IMG/VR virus record: IMGVR_UViG_2565956620_000001
Coordinates: 1 to 31,985 of that record
Source: a virus
Lineage: Duplodnaviria; Heunggongvirae; Uroviricota; Caudoviricetes
Length of the DNA stretch: 31,985 nucleotides
Strand: one strand, 5' to 3'
Below, in pieces: positions 1-31,985 of the stretch. The first letter of the stretch is position 1; each line of letters opens with the position of its first letter. The notes under the pieces were generated by a model that searched no databases, was not told the origin of the DNA, and saw only the letters and a program-made list of their open reading frames with translations. The position numbers and the translations under genes were made by a program.

Positions 1-981
1 TTATAACGTCACTCCGCCTTTTAGTGGATTCAGAGCGACGGCGTTCTGCAGGTAGTCAGGCGCAAGGTGCGCATAGGTCATTGTCTGCTGAATGCTCGCA
101 TGCCCCAGAATCTGTTGCAGTGCAATTATGTTGCCCCCATTCATCATGAAATGGCTTGCGAATGTATGCCGCAGAATGTGGGTTGCCTGATTGGGAGGTA
201 TATCAGGTTTCACTCTGCGTAAAATCCCGCAAAACTTCTCATAATCTACCTTGAACAATTTGGCGCTGGCCTCCTCTTTAACTTTTTTCTCCAGTTCCTC
301 AGAAATCGGCACTGTTCGCTTTTTACCGTTTTTGGTTTTCAGGAAGGTAACCCTGCAACTTGTAATCTGTGCTGGTTTTAGCGTGGCAACTTCCGTCCAT
401 CTTCCTCCAGTGCTCAGACATAAAAGCGCGACAAGTAAGTCATCACCAGTCAAAACATTTAGCAGTTTTTCGATTTCTGCTTTTTCCAGGAACGTCATTT
501 CAGGGTTAGCCTCCGTCAGTGGCGGCAGTCCGTGAATTGGGTGTTGCCCGGAAAATTCATCCAATTGAATTAATTTTGTGAACATGCCGGATAATCGGTA
601 CATGTCGCGGTTTATCGTTGCAGCACTGATGCCATCACGTAGTCGCATGGAGCGATAATCCATCAAAGCCCTTTTGTTCATCCGACTCACTGGTATATCA
701 CCTATGCCGCTGATGGTTTTGAGCAGATGATTAAACTCTTTTGTCCCATGCTCGTGGTTTTGCCCGTGGTATTTCCACCAGATGTCGAGCAATTCTGTCA
801 AAGTTCGGCGGTCTGCTCGCTGGCCTCCCCATTCTTTCTGACTGGCATTGACGATTGTGTATCGCTCAAATGCTACCGCTTCAGCTTTTCTTTCAAATTT
901 CCTGCGGATGCGTTTTCCATCGCGACCGCGAGGCCTGATATCCACTTCATAACGTCCATCATCGAGCTTTCTGATACTCAT
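1..981 (-). CDS. int: Tyrosine integrase, P2 Int family (326 aa)
   Basis: ATG at 981..979 preceded by a G-rich RBS; stop codon at 1..3; the ORF-track N-terminal extension to 1191 has no RBS and overlaps the int-C spacer. Confidence 0.85.
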   Translation of the reverse strand: MSIRKLDDGRYEVDIRPRGRDGKRIRRKFERKAEAVAFERYTIVNASQKEWGGQRADRRTLTELLDIWWKYHGQNHEHGTKEFNHLLKTISGIGDIPVSRMNKRALMDYRSMRLRDGISAATINRDMYRLSGMFTKLIQLDEFSGQHPIHGLPPLTEANPEMTFLEKAEIEKLLNVLTGDDLLVALLCLSTGGRWTEVATLKPAQITSCRVTFLKTKNGKKRTVPISEELEKKVKEEASAKLFKVDYEKFCGILRRVKPDIPPNQATHILRHTFASHFMMNGGNIIALQQILGHASIQQTMTYAHLAPDYLQNAVALNPLKGGVTL

Positions 982-3829: not shown

Positions 3830-4101
3830 GTATTCGTATTGAAATTGGCGAACGTTATGTCGTTACCAGTGACAGCTTTCAGTTTATTCTCCACGAGAAA
3901 AAGAGAGCGGAAAGCGGTAAAAACGCCGGTCAGGAATGGCTGGCGGTGGTTGGTTATTATCCGAAATTAAGCCAGCTCGTTTCCGGCCTGATGCATCACG
4001 ATATTCTGACCGGAAGCGCAAAGTCTTTTGCTGATTTAAACGCGCAGGTTGAGCAACTCAGCAGGCGTTGTTCAGAGGCTTTTGGCTCATATGGCCGTTA
4101 A
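3826..4101 (+). CDS. Hypothetical protein (91 aa)
   Basis: ATGA overlap with the upstream gene; GGAG RBS. Confidence 0.5.
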   Translation: MSIRIEIGERYVVTSDSFQFILHEKKRAESGKNAGQEWLAVVGYYPKLSQLVSGLMHHDILTGSAKSFADLNAQVEQLSRRCSEAFGSYGR

Positions 4102-6385
4102 AGCCTCCGGGCGTTTTGTCCCTCCTTCAGCATTTGCTGCAGGCACCGGTAAGGCGTTTACCGGTGCTTATGCATGGAACGCGCCACGCGAGGCCGTCGG
4201 GCGCGAAAGACCCCTTACACGTGACGAGATGCGTCAGGTGCAAGGTGTTTTATCCACGATTAACCGCCTGCCTTACTTTTTGCGTTCGCTGTTTACTTCA
4301 CGCTATGACTACATCCGGCGCAATAAAAGCCCGGTGCACGGGTTTTATTTCCTCACATCCACTTTTCAGCGTCGTTTATGGCCGCGCATTGAGCGCGTGA
4401 ATCAGCGCCATGAAATGAACACCGACGCGTCGTTGCTGTTTCTGGCAGAGCGTGACCATTATGCGCGTCTGCCGGGGATGAATGATAAGGAGCTGAAAAA
4501 GTTTGCCGCCCGTATTTCATCGCAGCTTTTCATGATGTATGAGGAACTCTGCGATGCCTGGGTGGATGCGCATGGCGAAAAAGAATCGCTGTTTACGGAT
4601 GAGGCGCAGGCTCACCTCTATGGTCATGTTGCTGGCGCTGCACGTGCTTTCAATATTTCCCCTCTCTACTGGAAAAAATACCGTAAAGGACAGATGACCA
4701 CGAGGCAGGCATATTCTGCCATTGCCCGTCTGTTTAACGATGAGTGGTGGATTAGTCAGCTTAAAGGCCAGCGTATGCGCTGGCATGAAGCGTTACTGAT
4801 AGCTGTCGGGGAGGTCAATAAAGACCGTTCTCCTTATGCCAGTAAACACGCCATTCGTGATGTGCGTGCGCGCCGCCAGGCAAATCTGGAATTTCTTAAA
4901 TCGTGTGACCTTGAAAACAGGGAAACCGGCGAACGCATCGACCTTATCAGTAAGGTGATGGGCAGTATTTCTAATCCTGAAATTCGCCGGATGGAGCTGA
5001 TGAACACCATTGCCGGTATTGAGCGTTACGCCGCCGCAGAGGGTGATGTGGGGATGTTTATCACGCTGACCGCGCCGTCAAAGTATCACCCGACACGTCA
5101 GGTCGGAAAAGGCGAAAGAAAAACCGTCCAGCTTAATCACGGCTGGAATGATGAGGCATTTAATCCAAAGGATGCGCAGCGTTATCTCTGCCGTATCTGG
5201 AGCCTGATGCGCACGGCATTCAAGGATAATGATTTACAGGTCTACGGTTTGCGTGTCGTCGAGCCACACCACGACGGAACGCCGCACTGGCATATGATGC
5301 TTTTTTGTAATCCACGCCAGCGTAACCAGATTATCGAAATCATGCGTCGCTATGCGCTCAAAGAGGATGGTGACGAAAGAGGAGCCGCGCGAAACCGTTT
5401 TCAGGCAAAACACCTTAACCGGGGCGGTGCTGCGGGATATATCGCGAAATACATCTCAAAAAACATCGATGGCTATGCACTGGATGGTCAGCTCGATAAC
5501 GATACCGGCAGGCCGCTGAAAGACACAGCGGCGGCTGTTACCGCATGGGCGTCAACGTGGCGCATACCACAATTTAAAACGGTTGGCCTGCCGACAATGG
5601 GGGCTTACCGTGAACTACGCAAATTGCCTCGCGGCGTCAGCATTGCTGATGAGTTTGACGAGCGCGTCGAGGCTGCACGCGCCGCCGCAGACAGTGGTGA
5701 TTTTGCGTTGTATATCCGCGCGCAGGGTGGGGCAAATGTCCCGCGCGATTGTCAGACTGTCAGGGTCGCCCGTAGCCCGTCGGATGACGTTAACGAGTAC
5801 GAGGAAGAGGTCGAGAGAGTGGTCGGCATTTACGCACCGCATCTCGGCGCGCGTCATATTCATATCACCAGAACGACGGAGTGGCGCATTGTGCCGAAAG
5901 TTCCGGTCGTTGAGCCTTTGACTTTAAAAAGCGGCATCGCCGCGCCTCGGAGTCCTGTCAATAACTGTGGAAAGCTCACCGGTGGTGATACTTCGTTACC
6001 GGCTCCCACACCTTCTGAGCACGCCGCAGCAGTGCTTAATCTGGTTGATGACGGTGTTATTGAATGGAATGAACCGGAGGTCGTGAGGGCGCTCAGGGGC
6101 GCACTAAAATACGACCTGAGAACGCCAAACCGTCAGCAAAGAAACGGAAGCCCGTTAAAACCACATGAAATTGCACCATCGGCCAGACTGACCCGGTCGG
6201 AAAGAATGCAAATCACCCGTATCCGCGTTGACCTTGCTCAGAACGGTATCAGGCCGCAGCGATGGGAGCTTGAGGCGCTGGCGCGTGGGGCAACCGTAAA
6301 TTATGACGGGAAACATTTCACTTATCAGGTCGCTGATGAGTGGCTTGGATTTCCTTCTGTTGATTTTTTTGATTGTGGTGCTTGA
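4091..6385 (+). CDS. A: Rolling-circle replication initiator gpA (HUH endonuclease, 764 aa)
   Basis: HUH motif PHWHMMLF (codons about 5282..5305); YIAKYISK with tyrosines at codons 450 and 454 counted from ATG 4091, matching the P2 A active-site numbering as I recall it. Confidence 0.9.
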   Translation: MAVKASGRFVPPSAFAAGTGKAFTGAYAWNAPREAVGRERPLTRDEMRQVQGVLSTINRLPYFLRSLFTSRYDYIRRNKSPVHGFYFLTSTFQRRLWPRIERVNQRHEMNTDASLLFLAERDHYARLPGMNDKELKKFAARISSQLFMMYEELCDAWVDAHGEKESLFTDEAQAHLYGHVAGAARAFNISPLYWKKYRKGQMTTRQAYSAIARLFNDEWWISQLKGQRMRWHEALLIAVGEVNKDRSPYASKHAIRDVRARRQANLEFLKSCDLENRETGERIDLISKVMGSISNPEIRRMELMNTIAGIERYAAAEGDVGMFITLTAPSKYHPTRQVGKGERKTVQLNHGWNDEAFNPKDAQRYLCRIWSLMRTAFKDNDLQVYGLRVVEPHHDGTPHWHMMLFCNPRQRNQIIEIMRRYALKEDGDERGAARNRFQAKHLNRGGAAGYIAKYISKNIDGYALDGQLDNDTGRPLKDTAAAVTAWASTWRIPQFKTVGLPTMGAYRELRKLPRGVSIADEFDERVEAARAAADSGDFALYIRAQGGANVPRDCQTVRVARSPSDDVNEYEEEVERVVGIYAPHLGARHIHITRTTEWRIVPKVPVVEPLTLKSGIAAPRSPVNNCGKLTGGDTSLPAPTPSEHAAAVLNLVDDGVIEWNEPEVVRALRGALKYDLRTPNRQQRNGSPLKPHEIAPSARLTRSERMQITRIRVDLAQNGIRPQRWELEALARGATVNYDGKHFTYQVADEWLGFPSVDFFDCGA

Positions 6386-6581: not shown

Positions 6582-7757
6582 ATGAAAAAAAACTCGGTAG
6601 GTGTGGAGGATAAATTAAAACATAAAGCAGTTCAATATATTAATATTGAAGATCTGGAGCTTGATGTTGAAAACCCCCGCTTTGGTGAAGACTCTTCTTC
6701 ATCTGATACACAAGTTGATGTGCTGAATAATATTGTTAAAAATTATGGCGTTACTGATGTAATAAGTTCTATTGCAGTGAATGGTTATTTTTCTGCTGAG
6801 CCAATGGTGGTGAGGAAAAATAATAATAAGAAATTCACTGTAATGGAAGGTAATAGAAGGCTGGCTGCCTGTCTTATACTTAAAAATGATGACAGAGCAA
6901 GAGATCAAGTTAATCTGCATCAACAGTATATTGATAAATACAATTCTCATGGGTGCCCTAAAATAGACCCAGTTCCAGCAATAGTTTTTGAAGACGATGA
7001 TGGTGTAGATAAAAAATCACTTATATCATATTTAGGTGTGAGGCATATCGTATCTACAAAGGATTGGGATTCATACGCTAAGGCTGCATGGATATCTCGA
7101 ACCATCAAGGAAGGAGATATGAGCGTATCTGATATTTCCACTATGATTGGTGACCGTAATAGCACTATAAAAAGACTTTTGTCTGGATATAATTTCATTA
7201 AACAAATGGAGTCTGCTGGGAAGTATAATAAAGATGATAGTGTGAAGAAAGGGAGAGGGAGCAATACTAGTTATCCATTCTCGTGGGTTTATACATTGCT
7301 GAGTTATAAGAGTATTCAGGATTTTGTGGGCTTATCAGATAATCCTACAGACCCTAATCCAATAGATGAAAAGAAATTGGATAATGCGAAGCTTCTAATG
7401 ACAGCTATGTTTGGTAATAAAAATAAAGGACAAAACTCACAAGTTAAAGACTCTCGTAATCTTGGTGTCTTGGCTGAGATAGTTGCTTCTCCAGAAAAAG
7501 TTATACTGCTCAAGCAAGGCAAGGATGTTGAAGACATTAATGACCTAACTCAGCCAATCGGCGATAGGTTGACTAGTTTAATGTTAGAAATTAGAAGTAA
7601 ATTGGACGAATGTCTTACGAGGGTAGGGCGTGAAGATTTACCAATGCAGGATGCTATTCAACTTAATATATATCTTGAGCAAATAAGTAAACAATTTAGA
7701 TCTTTTAGAGTATCAATTAATGAGGCTATTACTGGAAGTGATAGTGAGGGTTTTTAA
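6582..7757 (+). CDS. ParB/sulfiredoxin-like N-terminal domain protein (391 aa), hotspot cargo
   Basis: GGGGAGGGG RBS; N-terminal signature IEDLELDVENPR ... SIAVNGYFSAEPMVV ... FTVMEGNRRLAA (GNRR at 6849..6860) typical of the ParB N-terminal fold; AT-rich. Confidence 0.7.
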   Translation: MKKNSVGVEDKLKHKAVQYINIEDLELDVENPRFGEDSSSSDTQVDVLNNIVKNYGVTDVISSIAVNGYFSAEPMVVRKNNNKKFTVMEGNRRLAACLILKNDDRARDQVNLHQQYIDKYNSHGCPKIDPVPAIVFEDDDGVDKKSLISYLGVRHIVSTKDWDSYAKAAWISRTIKEGDMSVSDISTMIGDRNSTIKRLLSGYNFIKQMESAGKYNKDDSVKKGRGSNTSYPFSWVYTLLSYKSIQDFVGLSDNPTDPNPIDEKKLDNAKLLMTAMFGNKNKGQNSQVKDSRNLGVLAEIVASPEKVILLKQGKDVEDINDLTQPIGDRLTSLMLEIRSKLDECLTRVGREDLPMQDAIQLNIYLEQISKQFRSFRVSINEAITGSDSEGF

Positions 7758-7759
7758 TT

Positions 7760-8716
7760 GTGAATTATGGTTTACGCTCTAAAATGCAGGGATTCGCAAC
7801 AGATGCGGATCAAGCAGAATTTAATGCATTACTTGATGTTAGCGCGACAATAGACTCAGGAATTGAGGATGATAAAATTGCTGGAACTATCTATGATGAG
7901 TTAGAAAATTTAGATGGTCATTTGGAAGAAGAATGGATGATGGAAGATCAGGGAAAGGAGCTTTTAGTTGGTCAGATTGCCGAGCATATACAATGGAGAG
8001 CAAAGGTTTTGGATGATATGTATCCATTTGAATATAAAGAAAATCATCTAACATTAAAGGAGTCTCCTTCCCTTGTTTATCTGTTTTGCTTATGTGTCTC
8101 TGTAATTAATAATTTAACAAAAGGAGATAATGTTAAGTTGCCTAGATTTTTTGAAGTTATGGCTGGGCGATTATTCACAAAATTTTTTAGTTCACACGCA
8201 AAACACATGCATACTGGTTGGCCTCGTTCAAATGGAAATCCTAGTAGTTATAAGGAACTAGCTTATAAACTGAACTCTTCGATCTCACCAAATACAAGAG
8301 AATGGTCTTGGCGCGTAGAGAATGGCTTAAGAGATGAGGATGCATTGAGAATTAAAGATTGTGGTGTGGATTTTGTTACATGGGTTGATTTTTTGGATGG
8401 TAGAGATGGACGTTTATTTGCTTTAGGGCAATGCGCTTGTGGTAATGATTGGCCAACAAAGTTTCAGGATATTAAAATTGAAAGGTTAACACCATGGTTT
8501 CATCCATTAACTTACATTAAGTGTGTTAAAGTTTTCTCAACACCTTATGTGTTAGTTGATGAAATGATAAGAGAAGCAAGCGCAGAAGCTGGAATTATAT
8601 TTGATCGAGTCCGTTTAACTATTGCATATGAGCGTTTTAAGGATGAATTTGGTGATATGCAGGATGAGTTAGATGCGTTAATTACCTTTTGTAAAGAATT
8701 AAAAAAGGCCCAGTGA
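7760..8716 (+). CDS. Hypothetical protein (318 aa), coupled partner of the ParB-like gene
   Basis: GTG start 3 nt after the upstream stop with GTGAGGG upstream; same AT-rich composition; no motif I can recognise. Confidence 0.55.
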   Translation: MNYGLRSKMQGFATDADQAEFNALLDVSATIDSGIEDDKIAGTIYDELENLDGHLEEEWMMEDQGKELLVGQIAEHIQWRAKVLDDMYPFEYKENHLTLKESPSLVYLFCLCVSVINNLTKGDNVKLPRFFEVMAGRLFTKFFSSHAKHMHTGWPRSNGNPSSYKELAYKLNSSISPNTREWSWRVENGLRDEDALRIKDCGVDFVTWVDFLDGRDGRLFALGQCACGNDWPTKFQDIKIERLTPWFHPLTYIKCVKVFSTPYVLVDEMIREASAEAGIIFDRVRLTIAYERFKDEFGDMQDELDALITFCKELKKAQ

Positions 8717-8722
8717 TGGGCC
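8701..8722 (-). terminator. Hairpin GGCCCA-gtga-TGGGCC followed by a T6 run on the minus strand; terminator between convergent genes
   Basis: Stem 8707..8712 / 8717..8722 spans both stop codons; A6 at 8701..8706 is a T-run for the minus-strand transcript. Confidence 0.5.
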
Positions 8723-8723
8723 A

Positions 8724-9707
8724 TTACCATATATCAGGGATGTTTCTCACAACCGCTTCAAACAAAGGTGGTGGAACTGCATTACCTACGACCTTATATC
8801 TCTCTTTTAACATCCGTGCGGCCCCAAAACTATCCATGTCAGGAAAAGTTAGATAACCACCATGATTGGTATATTCTTTACTAAACCCTTGCAGAATCGC
8901 CGCTTCTTTATAAGAGAAGCGTCTGGCTGGCGAGTTTGTTATAAACTCCCACTTGTCTATACCCACTTTTTTTAATTCGGGGCTGATGGGATGCAAGGGA
9001 ATATGACGAAGATTACTTACGATAGTTTTACTAACTTCGTCCCAGTTGCGGCGTCTATTCCTAGATAAATAGTACCAGTGAAATGGGTCATCACAAAACT
9101 CACCGATTGGCCATTCAGGTAATCCCTTTAGTGCTTCACCGATTGTTACATAAGGTAATGATTTTTCCTCACCATGTGTGGCTTCAGGGAATTTATATTC
9201 TAGGTCGAAGTCGTTACGAATACCTACAATTATTAATCTCTTACGCTCTTGCGGTACACCGTAGTGGTGAGCTTTGAGTATATTCCAAACAACTTTATAG
9301 CCTATATTACCAGCATTGGAGAAGCGTTTTATTTGATCATCGAGTAGATGCTTAAATGTACTATTTCTCATACCTGAAACATTTTCGACAATAAATGCTT
9401 TAGGTTGAATATTGGTTAATGCACGTGCAAACTCTTTATATAAAAAATTTATACTCCTGTCCGCAAGACGTGCGCCACCTTGGCTAAATCCTTGGCATGG
9501 ATAGCATCCAACAAGAAGGTCTGCACTCGGAAATTTTTCAACTTCTCGGATATCTTGGATTAGGTAATCTGTTTCTGGTAGGTTTGCGAGATAAACCTCT
9601 CTCGCATATGGCAAAATATCGTTTGCCATAACGATGTCGAAACCAGCTTTGCTTAATCCAGCATCGGAACCACCACAACCCGAGAACAATGATACAGCTT
9701 TTGGCAT
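8724..9707 (-). CDS. C5-cytosine DNA methyltransferase (327 aa)
   Basis: Motif I FSGCGG, motif IV PCQ (Cys codon 9497..9495), motif VI ENV, motif VIII QERKR, C-terminal GNAV; ATG at 9707 with GGGGGAG RBS preferred over the TTG at 9731. Confidence 0.85.
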   Translation of the reverse strand: MPKAVSLFSGCGGSDAGLSKAGFDIVMANDILPYAREVYLANLPETDYLIQDIREVEKFPSADLLVGCYPCQGFSQGGARLADRSINFLYKEFARALTNIQPKAFIVENVSGMRNSTFKHLLDDQIKRFSNAGNIGYKVVWNILKAHHYGVPQERKRLIIVGIRNDFDLEYKFPEATHGEEKSLPYVTIGEALKGLPEWPIGEFCDDPFHWYYLSRNRRRNWDEVSKTIVSNLRHIPLHPISPELKKVGIDKWEFITNSPARRFSYKEAAILQGFSKEYTNHGGYLTFPDMDSFGAARMLKERYKVVGNAVPPPLFEAVVRNIPDIW

Positions 9708-9914
9708 TTTCTCCCCCTGATAAACCGGCAAGAGTATAGCTTTTTATATGGCTACTGCATACATCATCCTTATAAATGGCAGTTTCTGGTGTATGCATGG
9801 ACGTGAATTTTTTTGCATGCATTAGCTTTACTTATTTGAAGTATTGTCCGTGACGTCTGGCGCGCTTCCAACGTATTCATGAAACTGCATTAAAAGCGCC
9901 CCATGAAGCGGGCG

Positions 9915-10102: not shown

Positions 10103-11137
10103 TCAGCCGTTGTCAGTGTCCAGTGAGTAGTTTTTAAAGCGGATGACCTCCTGACCGAGCCAGCCGTTTATCTCGCGGATCCTGTCCTGTAACGGGATAA
10201 GCTCATTGCGGACAAAGACCTTTGCCACTTTCTCAATATCACCCAGAGACCCGACGTTTTCCGGCTTGCCGCCCATCAACTGAAAGGGGATGCGGTGCGC
10301 ATCCAGCAGGTCAACGGCGCTGGCTTTTTTGATATTAAAAAAATCGTCCTTCGTCGCCACTTCACTGAGCGGGATAATTTTAATGCCGTCGGCTTTCCCC
10401 TGTGGGGCATAGAGAAACAGGTTTTTAAAGTTATTGCGGCCTTTCGACTTCACCATGTTTTCGCGAAGCATTTCGATATCGTTGCGGTCCTGCACGGCAT
10501 CGGTGACGTACATGATGTATCCGGCATGCGCGCCGTTTTCGTAATACTTGCGGCGGAACAGCGTGGCCGACTCATTCAGCCAGGCAGAGTTAAGGGCGCT
10601 GAGATATTCCGGCAGGCCGTACAGCTCCTGATTAATATCCGGCTCCAGCAGGTGAAACACGGAACCGGGCGCGAAAGGTGTCGGCTCGTTGAAGGACGGC
10701 ACCCACCAGTAAACATCCTCCTCCACGCCACGGCGGGTATATTTTGCCGGTGAGGTTTCCAGTCTGATGATCTTACCGGTGGTGCTGTAACGCTTTTCCA
10801 GAAACGCATTACCGAACACCAGAAAATCCAGCACAAAGCGGCTGAAATCCTGTTGCGAAAGCCACGGATGCGGGATAAATGTCGAGGCCAGAATATTGCG
10901 TTTAACGTAAATCGGTGAGCTGTGATGCACGGCAGCACGCAGGCTTTTCGCCAGACCGGTAAAGCTGACCGGCGGCTCATACCATCTGCCGTTACTGATG
11001 CACTCGACGTAATCCAGAATGTCACGGCGGTCGAGTACCGGCACCGGCTCACCAAAGGTGAATGCCTCCATTTTCGGGGCGCTGGCGGTCATTTTTTTTG
11101 CCGCAGGTTGCGGTGTTTTCCCTTTTTTCTTGCTCAT
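10103..11137 (-). CDS. Q: Portal protein (344 aa)
   Basis: Synteny, P2-like length, ATGA overlap with the P stop. Confidence 0.85.
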   Translation of the reverse strand: MSKKKGKTPQPAAKKMTASAPKMEAFTFGEPVPVLDRRDILDYVECISNGRWYEPPVSFTGLAKSLRAAVHHSSPIYVKRNILASTFIPHPWLSQQDFSRFVLDFLVFGNAFLEKRYSTTGKIIRLETSPAKYTRRGVEEDVYWWVPSFNEPTPFAPGSVFHLLEPDINQELYGLPEYLSALNSAWLNESATLFRRKYYENGAHAGYIMYVTDAVQDRNDIEMLRENMVKSKGRNNFKNLFLYAPQGKADGIKIIPLSEVATKDDFFNIKKASAVDLLDAHRIPFQLMGGKPENVGSLGDIEKVAKVFVRNELIPLQDRIREINGWLGQEVIRFKNYSLDTDNG

Positions 11138-30628: not shown

Positions 30629-30847
30629 ATGTTTCATTGTCCTTTATGCCAGCATGCCGCACATGCGCGTACAAGCCGCTATATCACTGACACGACAAAA
30701 GAGCGTTATCACCAGTGTCAGAACGTGAATTGCAGCGCCACGTTCATCACTTATGAGTCGGTACAGCGATACATCGTGAAGCCGGGAGAAGTCCACGCCG
30801 TAAGGCCGCACCCGTTACCATCAGGACAGCAAATTATGTGGATGTGA
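30629..30847 (+). CDS. ogr: Late-gene transcription activator Ogr (72 aa, zinc finger)
   Basis: Begins MFHCPLCQHAAHARTSRYITDTTKERYHQCQNVNCSATF with four Cys ligands; GGAAGAGG RBS; the track's N-terminal extension is not needed. Confidence 0.9.
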   Translation: MFHCPLCQHAAHARTSRYITDTTKERYHQCQNVNCSATFITYESVQRYIVKPGEVHAVRPHPLPSGQQIMWM

Positions 30848-30857
30848 TCACAAAAAT

Positions 30858-30884
30858 AGCCCCTCAGTTGAGGGGCTTATTTAT
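30858..30884 (+). terminator. Rho-independent terminator of ogr
   Basis: AGCCCCTC-agtt-GAGGGGCT stem followed by TATTTAT. Confidence 0.7.
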
Positions 30885-30890
30885 GGTCGA

Positions 30891-30909
30891 TGTGGACGCT
30901 ATGTGGACA
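30891..30909 (+). promoter_or_regulatory. Direct repeats TGTGGAC (30891..30897) and TGTGGACA (30902..30909); candidate integrase arm-type sites of attR
   Basis: Two copies 11 bp apart next to ogr, where the P2 right arm lies; the consensus is recalled from memory and uncertain. Confidence 0.35.
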
Positions 30910-30915
30910 GTGCTT

Positions 30916-30935
30916 GATATAAATCCATTTATATC
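30916..30935. repeat. Palindrome GATATAAAT-CC-ATTTATATC; candidate att core or host-factor site
   Basis: 9-bp perfect inverted arms; an IHF-like TATCATCAGGTTA follows at 30932..30944. Confidence 0.3.
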
Positions 30936-30974
30936 ATCAGGTTAGGTGCTTTTTTGTGACACCATCCCTGTCTT

Positions 30975-31001
30975 CCCCCACATGATGTGGGGGTTTTTTT
31001 T
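30975..31001 (+). terminator. Strong rho-independent terminator, probably of the upstream host gene and displaced by the prophage
   Basis: CCCCCACA-tga-TGTGGGGG stem followed by a T8 run; no plus-strand gene between the ogr terminator and this one. Confidence 0.65.
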
Positions 31002-31082
31002 ATCCTCAATTTGCTTGCTGCTTAATGCATTGCAGATGATTTGCTTCCGTTATACTACCGTCAGTTGATAGCGGGAGTATTT

Positions 31083-31985
31083 ATGAATCAATCTTATGGA
31101 CGGCTGGTCAGTCGGGCGGCGATTGCTGCGACGGCGATGGCTTCGCTGCTATTGCTGATTAAAATTTTTGCATGGTGGTATACCGGGTCGGTGAGTATTC
31201 TCGCCGCGCTGGTGGATTCGCTGGTGGATATCGGCGCGTCGTTGACGAATTTACTGGTGGTGCGATATTCCCTGCAACCTGCCGACGATAATCACTCGTT
31301 TGGTCACGGTAAAGCTGAGTCCCTCGCGGCGCTGGCGCAAAGTATGTTTATCTCCGGTTCGGCACTATTCCTGTTTTTGACGGGTATTCAACATCTGGTA
31401 TCTCCAACACCGATGACAGATCCAGGCGTCGGGGTTATCGTGACAATTGTGGCGCTAATTTGTACGATTATCCTTGTCTCGTTTCAGCGGTGGGTGGTGC
31501 GCCGGACGCAAAGCCAGGCGGTGCGGGCTGATATGCTACATTACCAGTCTGATGTTATGATGAACGGCGCAATTCTGCTGGCGCTGGGGTTGTCCTGGTA
31601 CGGCTGGCATCGCGCCGATGCTCTGTTTGCATTGGGAATCGGCATCTATATTTTATATAGCGCGTTACGCATGGGATATGAGGCGGTACAGTCATTACTG
31701 GATCGCGCATTGCCTGATGAAGAACGGCAAGAAATTATTGATATCGTGACTTCCTGGCCGGGTGTTAGCGGCGCTCACGATCTTCGCACGCGGCAGTCAG
31801 GGCCGACCCGCTTTATTCAGATTCATTTGGAAATGGAAGACTCTCTGCCTTTGGTTCAGGCACATATGGTGGCGGATCAGGTAGAGCAGGCTATTTTACG
31901 GCGTTTTCCGGGATCGGATGTGATTATCCATCAGGACCCCTGTTCCGTCGTACCCAGGGAGGGTAAACGGTCTATGCTTTCATAA
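31083..31985 (+). CDS. fieF: Cation-efflux pump FieF (CDF family, 300 aa), host gene
   Basis: Start [40 protein letters not shown] and full length match E. coli FieF as I recall it; GGGAG RBS before ATG 31083. Confidence 0.85.

Follow-up and report, generated by a model that had tools for sequence, protein, structure and literature searches.

How does a P2-like prophage end on the side of its host, and what is a strong terminator doing there with no phage gene in front of it? The window, that is, the whole stretch of 31,985 nucleotides that was analyzed, poses both questions at its right-hand end. It opens with the stop codon of int at position 1 on the reverse strand and closes with the stop codon of fieF at position 31985. 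The integrase gene int (1-981, reverse strand, 326 amino acids) marks the left prophage end. On the right, the ORF of the late-gene activator ogr (30629-30847), annotated as ogr or ogrK in matching records, is the last phage gene before the junction, and fieF (31083-31985, ATG at 31083) is a host gene, assigned by its ORF and its genome matches, for a CDF-family cation efflux transporter. All features described below lie on the plus strand unless stated otherwise. A preliminary description of 30848-31082 had named 30886-31082 as the part to align with the host, had listed two direct repeats and a palindrome in this segment with its candidate attR sites, and had proposed that a terminator of the host had been displaced to a place just upstream of fieF. 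Comparison with lysogens, prophage-free genomes, and free phages leads us, with high confidence, to identify the segment as the attR (P arm, core, and B') of a Wphi-type P2-like (Peduovirus) prophage, at a known site within the 3' part of the small RNA gene cpxQ.

Junction queries delimit a common core of 47 bp

Junction queries were run against 5,426 complete E. coli genomes. The right part of the region was matched in every one of them, the whole ogr-to-fieF junction in 790 (~15%), and the integrase end of the window in 789. Prophage-free genomes (UTI89, IAI1, and others) matched from window position 30958 onward only, and no homology to 30848-30957 was found in prophage-free E. coli genomes. 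Free P2-like phages (Wphi, fiAA91-ss, P24B2, L-413C, and others) gave the converse result, matching from ogr up to 31004 only. The alignment to prophage-free genomes that the preliminary description had set as a check was thus discontinuous, with homology beginning abruptly at 30958; host DNA starts not at about 30886 but between 30958 and 31005.

The preliminary description had held that the core could be fixed only with attL; comparison with attL, attB, and attP now fixes it. A four-way alignment of attR (the window), attP (Wphi), attL (strain C10), and attB (UTI89) contained exactly 47 consecutive invariant columns, at window positions 30958-31004, with the sequence GACACCATCCCTGTCTTCCCCCACATGATGTGGGGGTTTTTTTTATC. 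This is the common core (O), and it is made up of CpxQ nucleotides 15 to 58 followed by ATC. Everything to its left is phage DNA (the P arm). To its right the DNA is that of the host, upstream of fieF, and forms the B' arm (31005-31082), which was matched in all 5,426 E. coli genomes and is absent from free phage genomes. Two host polymorphisms fall within the B' arm, where the window has T for C at 31015 relative to both UTI89 and K-12, and C for G at 31056 relative to K-12.

Since the int stop codon is position 1 of the window, attL is expected just beyond its left edge. No difference from the window was found in strain EC17CM2 over the two stretches that were compared (581 nt at the int end, 251 nt at attR). 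In its attL, the cpxP stop codon is followed by 24 nt, then by the core of 47 bp, then by a P' arm of 115 nt with GTGTGGACACTATGTGGACACT, and last by the int stop codon. A core matching that of the window was found in attL of lysogens, this strain included, and in lysogens attL lies directly downstream of cpxP, which places the prophage between cpxP and fieF as had been suggested. The attB site of one further strain, GN02461 (L010), has been altered by what appears to be an IS200C element inserted in or just after the cpxQ terminator T-run: T7 is followed by unrelated sequence, tnpA lies ~150 nt downstream, and the right end of the Wphi core is truncated.

Putative integrase and IHF sites occupy the P arm

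The phage side of the junction begins with the intrinsic terminator of ogr and the F operon (30858-30885), found by a terminator scan and by alignment with P2. It consists of a hairpin at 30858-30877 and a T-rich tail, TTATTTAT, which is interrupted; the folding energy is -16.9 kcal/mol (z = -4.75), and the element aligns with the P2 feature "terminator for ogr transcript and F operon." The annotation of P2 (AF063097), which is experimentally footprinted, gives the feature order ogr terminator, Int P-arm, IHF, Int core, Cox sites, and Int P'-arm. The alignment of the window with P2 takes in the terminator, the arm repeats, and the IHF segment up to ~30937-30948, and diverges just before the core.

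The TGTGGAC(A) direct repeats noted earlier, 11 bp apart after the ogr terminator, are present. They form the P arm feature at 30887-30914, in which two putative arm-type Int repeats, ATGTGGAC, occupy 30890-30897 and 30901-30908 with a start-to-start distance of 11 bp; the assignment is based on the direct repeats themselves, the P2 alignment, and a consensus match. As a single word, TGTGGAC is not enriched in the window (3 copies, versus 4.4 expected). The TGTGGAC-N4-TGTGGAC doublet has one exact occurrence there, where 0.20 would be expected even with 2 mismatches, and it recurs in the P' arm of attL and attP and in every related phage att region fetched. The repeats fit the P2-type consensus tgTGGaCa, which is found on both sides of the core (PMC3448106), and align with the P2 feature "protein_bind Int, P arm." Here too, doublets of the tgTGGaCa type flank the core on both sides, in the P arm of the window (30891-30908) and in the P' arm of lysogen attL and of Wphi and P2 attP; the second doublet, TGTGGACA, comes from the P' arm that was read at attL of lysogens whose int end is identical to that of the window. 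In P2, the two further Int arm repeats in attL and attP overlap the end of int.

An AT-rich palindrome (30915-30936) overlaps an IHF-like site (30932-30944), and together (30915-30948) they constitute the presumed IHF bending site of the P arm. Both elements had been recognized before; the palindrome arms, given earlier as 9 bp, are in fact perfect and 10 bp each, TGATATAAAT (30915-30924) and ATTTATATCA (30927-30936), with a 2-nt spacer, cc. The IHF-like site, TATCATCAGGTTA, has one mismatch to the consensus WATCAANNNNTTR. Matches to this consensus are uninformative alone, with 27 found in the window and 25 expected, and the support for the site comes instead from homology: the segment 30915-30948 aligns with the "protein_bind IHF" feature of P2, an annotated footprint. 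Across five phage attP sequences, one of them from a divergent Salmonella phage, the arm doublet and the whole core were invariant, and the palindrome/IHF segment was largely so. By these comparisons, the repeats and the palindrome are probably protein-binding sites of the phage P arm and not crossover sites.

The window integrase is identical to Wphi Int at 316 of 326 positions (97%) and is called phage integrase in lysogens. Judged by this identity, it belongs to the Wphi specificity group and is the cognate tyrosine integrase, with its gene beside attL.

Some prophages at the same site have an extra ORF between ogr and the Int arm repeats, encoding a 213-aa hypothetical protein (WP_000416606.1). 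Inserts of this type were seen in sequences L005 (2347-2988), L012, and L014, from strains Z1323PEC0011, Sanji, and 4/2-1; in the strains with this ORF, homology to the window picks up again at 30888, just ahead of the first TGTGGAC.

The terminator upstream of fieF corresponds to the 3' end of cpxQ

The strong terminator that had been described ahead of fieF consists of a hairpin (30975-30993), CCCCCACAT-G-ATGTGGGGG, and a T8 run behind it, with the fieF ATG at 31083. The hairpin has 9-bp arms by sequence and folds as an 8-bp stem with a 3-nt loop; the 58-nt attR segment that includes it (30944-31001) folds at -19.7 kcal/mol. Terminator-like sites numbered 4 in the terminator scan, versus 0.7 expected. 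With its GC-rich hairpin and U-run, 30975-31001 is predicted to be an intrinsic terminator, and we annotate it from the scan, the inverted repeat, and the fold as the Rho-independent terminator of cpxP and CpxQ.

The gene cpxQ (b4716), annotated by RefSeq in MG1655, is 58 nt long and lies 10 nt downstream of the cpxP stop codon. CpxQ is the 3' untranslated region of the CpxR-dependent cpxP transcript, from which RNase E cuts it (PMC9438474); the seed for nhaB and cfa is the 5' end of CpxQ (PMC6755755). For the ends of CpxQ we followed the MG1655 annotation, with the C11G mutant (PMC6755755) as a check. The core starts at CpxQ nucleotide 15 and continues through the terminator T-run and ATC, so that by position and sequence the "orphan" terminator belongs to the sRNA gene cpxQ, as its 3' end. 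At attL, the full cpxQ is rebuilt from host nucleotides 1 to 14 and the core, and cpxP keeps a terminator because the phage attP core carries a copy. At attR, nucleotides 1 to 14, which hold the 5' seed, are replaced by phage AGGTGCTTTTTTGT; the remnant holds nucleotides 15 to 58 only and is identical to K-12 at 43 of 44 positions, the exception being a SNP in the loop. A complete CpxQ gene is absent from attR, where the upstream gene is ogr and not cpxP, and a promoter scan gave no plus-strand promoter-like site upstream of the remnant.

Rfam searches of attB, attL, attP, and attR gave no plus-strand family and no CpxQ family. The sole hit was Hrs1 (RF02628), on the minus strand, and its scores, 44.5 bits at attB and attL and 31.8 bits at attR and attP, fall below the gathering score of 56.4. 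These hits to Hrs1 ("Hfq-regulated sRNA 1") cover L001 1472-1544, L003 1310-1382, and window 30935-31001 (minus strand). The model hits the cpxQ locus on the opposite strand only, and it opens with AAAAAAA and then a hairpin; on this evidence, it looks like a CpxQ homologue entered as the reverse complement. Among the papers searched, none joins CpxQ with an integrase or an att site.

A natural SNP confines the crossover to the left part of the core

The SNP, A/C at 30985 (core position 28, in the hairpin loop), is A in the window and C in K-12-type hosts, and it allowed the parental origin of this position to be followed through integration. The A allele was present in 5/5 phage attP sequences read, and none of the 42 phage attP records covering most of the query (0/42) matched the C-allele query perfectly. 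Allele counts for the bacterial genomes rest on BLAST summary bands instead of a per-genome table, and place the C allele at core position 28 in ~17% of complete E. coli genomes, K-12 included. By the same bands, the C-allele attR query matched 1,716 genomes, comprising 790 lysogens and ~926 C-type non-lysogens. Perfect matches numbered 1,048, which leaves ~122 lysogens with a C-type attR, a count of genomes and not of independent lysogenization events.

Decisive here is that the same query found 1,717 places in 1,716 records, so at most one lysogen can have a C-type core at attL as well. A C-allele attL query gave no perfect full-length match, a result that is leaky alone, since P' arm variants exist. 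In strain 4/2-1, where both junctions were read directly, attL has A and attR has C. In lysogens of C-type hosts, then, cpxQ at attL now bears the phage allele, A, in place of C. Because attL joins host DNA on the left to phage DNA on the right, and attR phage DNA on the left to host DNA on the right, this segregation puts position 28 to the right of the crossover. The crossover lies within the left 27 bp of the core, and the segregation at 30985 defines the strand-exchange interval as 30958-30984.

Retention of the host allele C at attR also means that the host's own terminator has physically moved there. The displacement proposed in the preliminary description is upheld to that extent; the terminator is not exclusively host DNA, however, since it lies within a core that the phage carries as well. 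Lysogens make up similar shares of C-type hosts (~12%) and A-type hosts (~15%), from which it follows that the SNP does not block integration, and this fits a position outside the overlap region. An attempt to narrow the crossover further by phage polymorphisms failed, as no phage attP sequence examined varied within the core. In its left part, the core contains an inverted repeat, GACA (30958-30961) and TGTC (30969-30972), separated by the 7-bp spacer CCATCCC (30962-30968); the same repeat is the first hairpin of the CpxQ fold. From its arrangement, GACA-CCATCCC-TGTC is a plausible candidate for the Int core site.

Comparison with known integration systems

The integration site of Wphi in E. 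coli was already known (Nilsson et al.), and the E. coli W genome paper lists "cpxP-fieF: Wphi1 (P2)" (PMC3032704, Table 2). The attachment site and the system are therefore not new, and the overlap with CpxQ and the crossover interval from the SNP are modest additions. The same paper reports three P2-like insertion sites, the rybB ncRNA, the cyaR RNA, and cpxP-fieF (PMC3032704); since the cpxP-fieF site is the 3' end of an sRNA gene, all three are. Wphi itself has the same 47-bp core and the same host location, with Int at 97% and a single substitution in the P arm over 30880-30957. Nothing essential differs between the two, although immunity and cargo genes of its own set the window prophage apart, and in the P' arm it has the variant found in strains C10 and EC17CM2 instead of the Wphi one. 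In P2, by contrast, the core is different and shorter (27 bp, AAAAAATAAGCCCGTGTAAGGGAGATT), and the host site differs too, the P2-type site being the "cyaR RNA" of the E. coli W paper (PMC3032704).

A cargo block of three ORFs (6582-9731) in the window prophage is flanked by the replication gene A (4049-6385) and, on the minus strand, the portal gene (10103-11137). The accessory genes old and tin of P2 lie in the same place, between the early replication genes and the late genes. The first cargo ORF encodes 391 aa, with an N terminus that resembles PADLOC PD-Lambda-5_A (3e-19) and no Pfam hit; the second, of 318 aa, had no hit; and the third, on the reverse strand, encodes a C-5 cytosine DNA methylase (PF00145, 5e-59; PADLOC DruM2/MTase_II, 7.5e-106). 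By these similarities, the block is probably a defence or restriction-modification-like module.

In phage λ, attR is bound by a heterobivalent tyrosine integrase through arm-type and core-type sites, with an IHF bend between them, and the present attR would be organized likewise. The length and sequence of the λ core are unrelated to those of the Wphi-type core. A further difference concerns excision: λ Xis binds the P arm, which goes to attR. Cox of P2 and Wphi binds the P' arm, which goes to attL (PMC3936717). The site can also be compared with those of phages that integrate at the 3' ends of tRNA and tmRNA genes. Phage 186 in tRNA-Ile, and Fels-2 and SopE-phi in ssrA, have a long identity block that restores the 3' end of the small RNA gene (PMC3448106), and the phage studied here restores a gene end in the same manner, the restored gene being cpxQ. 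Unlike those sites, the target is an Hfq-dependent sRNA derived from an mRNA 3' untranslated region, together with its terminator, and P2-type arm sites take the place of 186-type ones.

Alternative readings of the junction

The element at 30975-31001 could be a terminator that serves the phage, for example as a back-up stop for late or ogr read-through that shields attP and int, with its identity to the cpxP terminator secondary. None of the free phage attP sequences examined departs from the block, which lies ~100 nt downstream of the ogr terminator with its interrupted T-tail. However, the 47-bp identity takes in 17 nt ahead of the hairpin, which play no part in a terminator, and stops 3 nt past the T-run, an extent that the rebuilding of cpxQ at attL explains exactly, and P2 is without a second terminator at the corresponding position. 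A phage terminator is accordingly an unlikely explanation of the block, and we note that the two roles are not mutually exclusive.

It is similarly improbable that the junction is a fossil, left by a defective prophage whose attR is no longer used. The element is carried by ~15% of genomes, and some of these copies could be fixed remnants; against this, the P2-like genome in the window is of full length, from int to ogr, Int is intact, and the att elements are identical, or nearly so, to those of plaque-forming phages.

In a third reading, the attR copy gives rise to a chimeric CpxQ-like sRNA, with a phage 5' end joined to CpxQ nucleotides 15 to 58, that acts on host targets or titrates Hfq. 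In its favor, 47 of 58 positions are identical to CpxQ, the same terminator, presumably the Hfq-binding part, still folds, and the subthreshold Rfam hit persists at attR and attP (31.8 bits). We consider it very unlikely, given that the plus strand has no promoter-like site upstream, that the ogr terminator intervenes, and that nucleotides 1 to 14, the pairing region for nhaB and cfa, are missing (PMC6755755). Equally far-fetched, in our estimation, is a wider version in which read-through from ogr or the late operon yields a chimeric CpxQ-like RNA during lytic growth, by which phages of the Wphi family would tap or titrate the Cpx/Hfq envelope-stress circuit.

A junction directly after the ogr terminator, with ~30886-31082 all host DNA and the repeats as host sites, was the range to be aligned in the preliminary description and has in its favor that the repeats start right after the phage terminator, but it is refuted, beyond reasonable doubt, by the limits of the matches in prophage-free genomes (none to 30848-30957) and in free phages, in which the segment occurs and aligns with the P-arm and IHF features of P2.

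Proposed mechanism and implications

We return to the reading of this segment as the attR of a Wphi-type prophage. By analogy with the biochemistry of P2 and Wphi, the N-terminal domain of Int would bind both TGTGGAC arm repeats, bending of the AT-rich palindromic segment by IHF would bring those same Int molecules to the core, and the core domains of Int would act on the left part of the core. In excision, the attR complex would pair with attL, where Int would be joined by Cox on the P' arm, to give attP and attB. The needed partner, attL, is the site that carries the Cox sites (PMC3936717).

The identity block extends far to the right of the crossover because attL, from the crossover rightward, is all phage DNA; to keep the gene intact, the phage must therefore supply the rest of cpxQ and the cpxP terminator. 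On this view, an identity of 47 bp would be longer than recombination needs and would reach from the crossover as far as cpxQ extends, in the manner of att sites in tRNA genes (PMC3448106). The host's original hairpin and T-run come to rest at attR, behind ogr, with neither CpxQ nucleotides 1 to 14 nor the cpxP promoter upstream.

For annotation, these results fix the right boundary of the prophage, with the core at 30958-31004 and prophage-specific DNA up to 30957, and SNP segregation at population scale limits the Wphi crossover to 27 bp at the left of the 47-bp block. For the host, fieF and its upstream region are left untouched by the insertion, and cpxP and CpxQ are rebuilt at attL with a 3' end supplied by the phage. 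With cpxQ as the target, and not some anonymous spot between genes, every genome of these phages, and every lysogen (~15% of complete E. coli genomes), bears a promoter-less second copy of CpxQ nucleotides 15 to 58, terminator end included, behind ogr.
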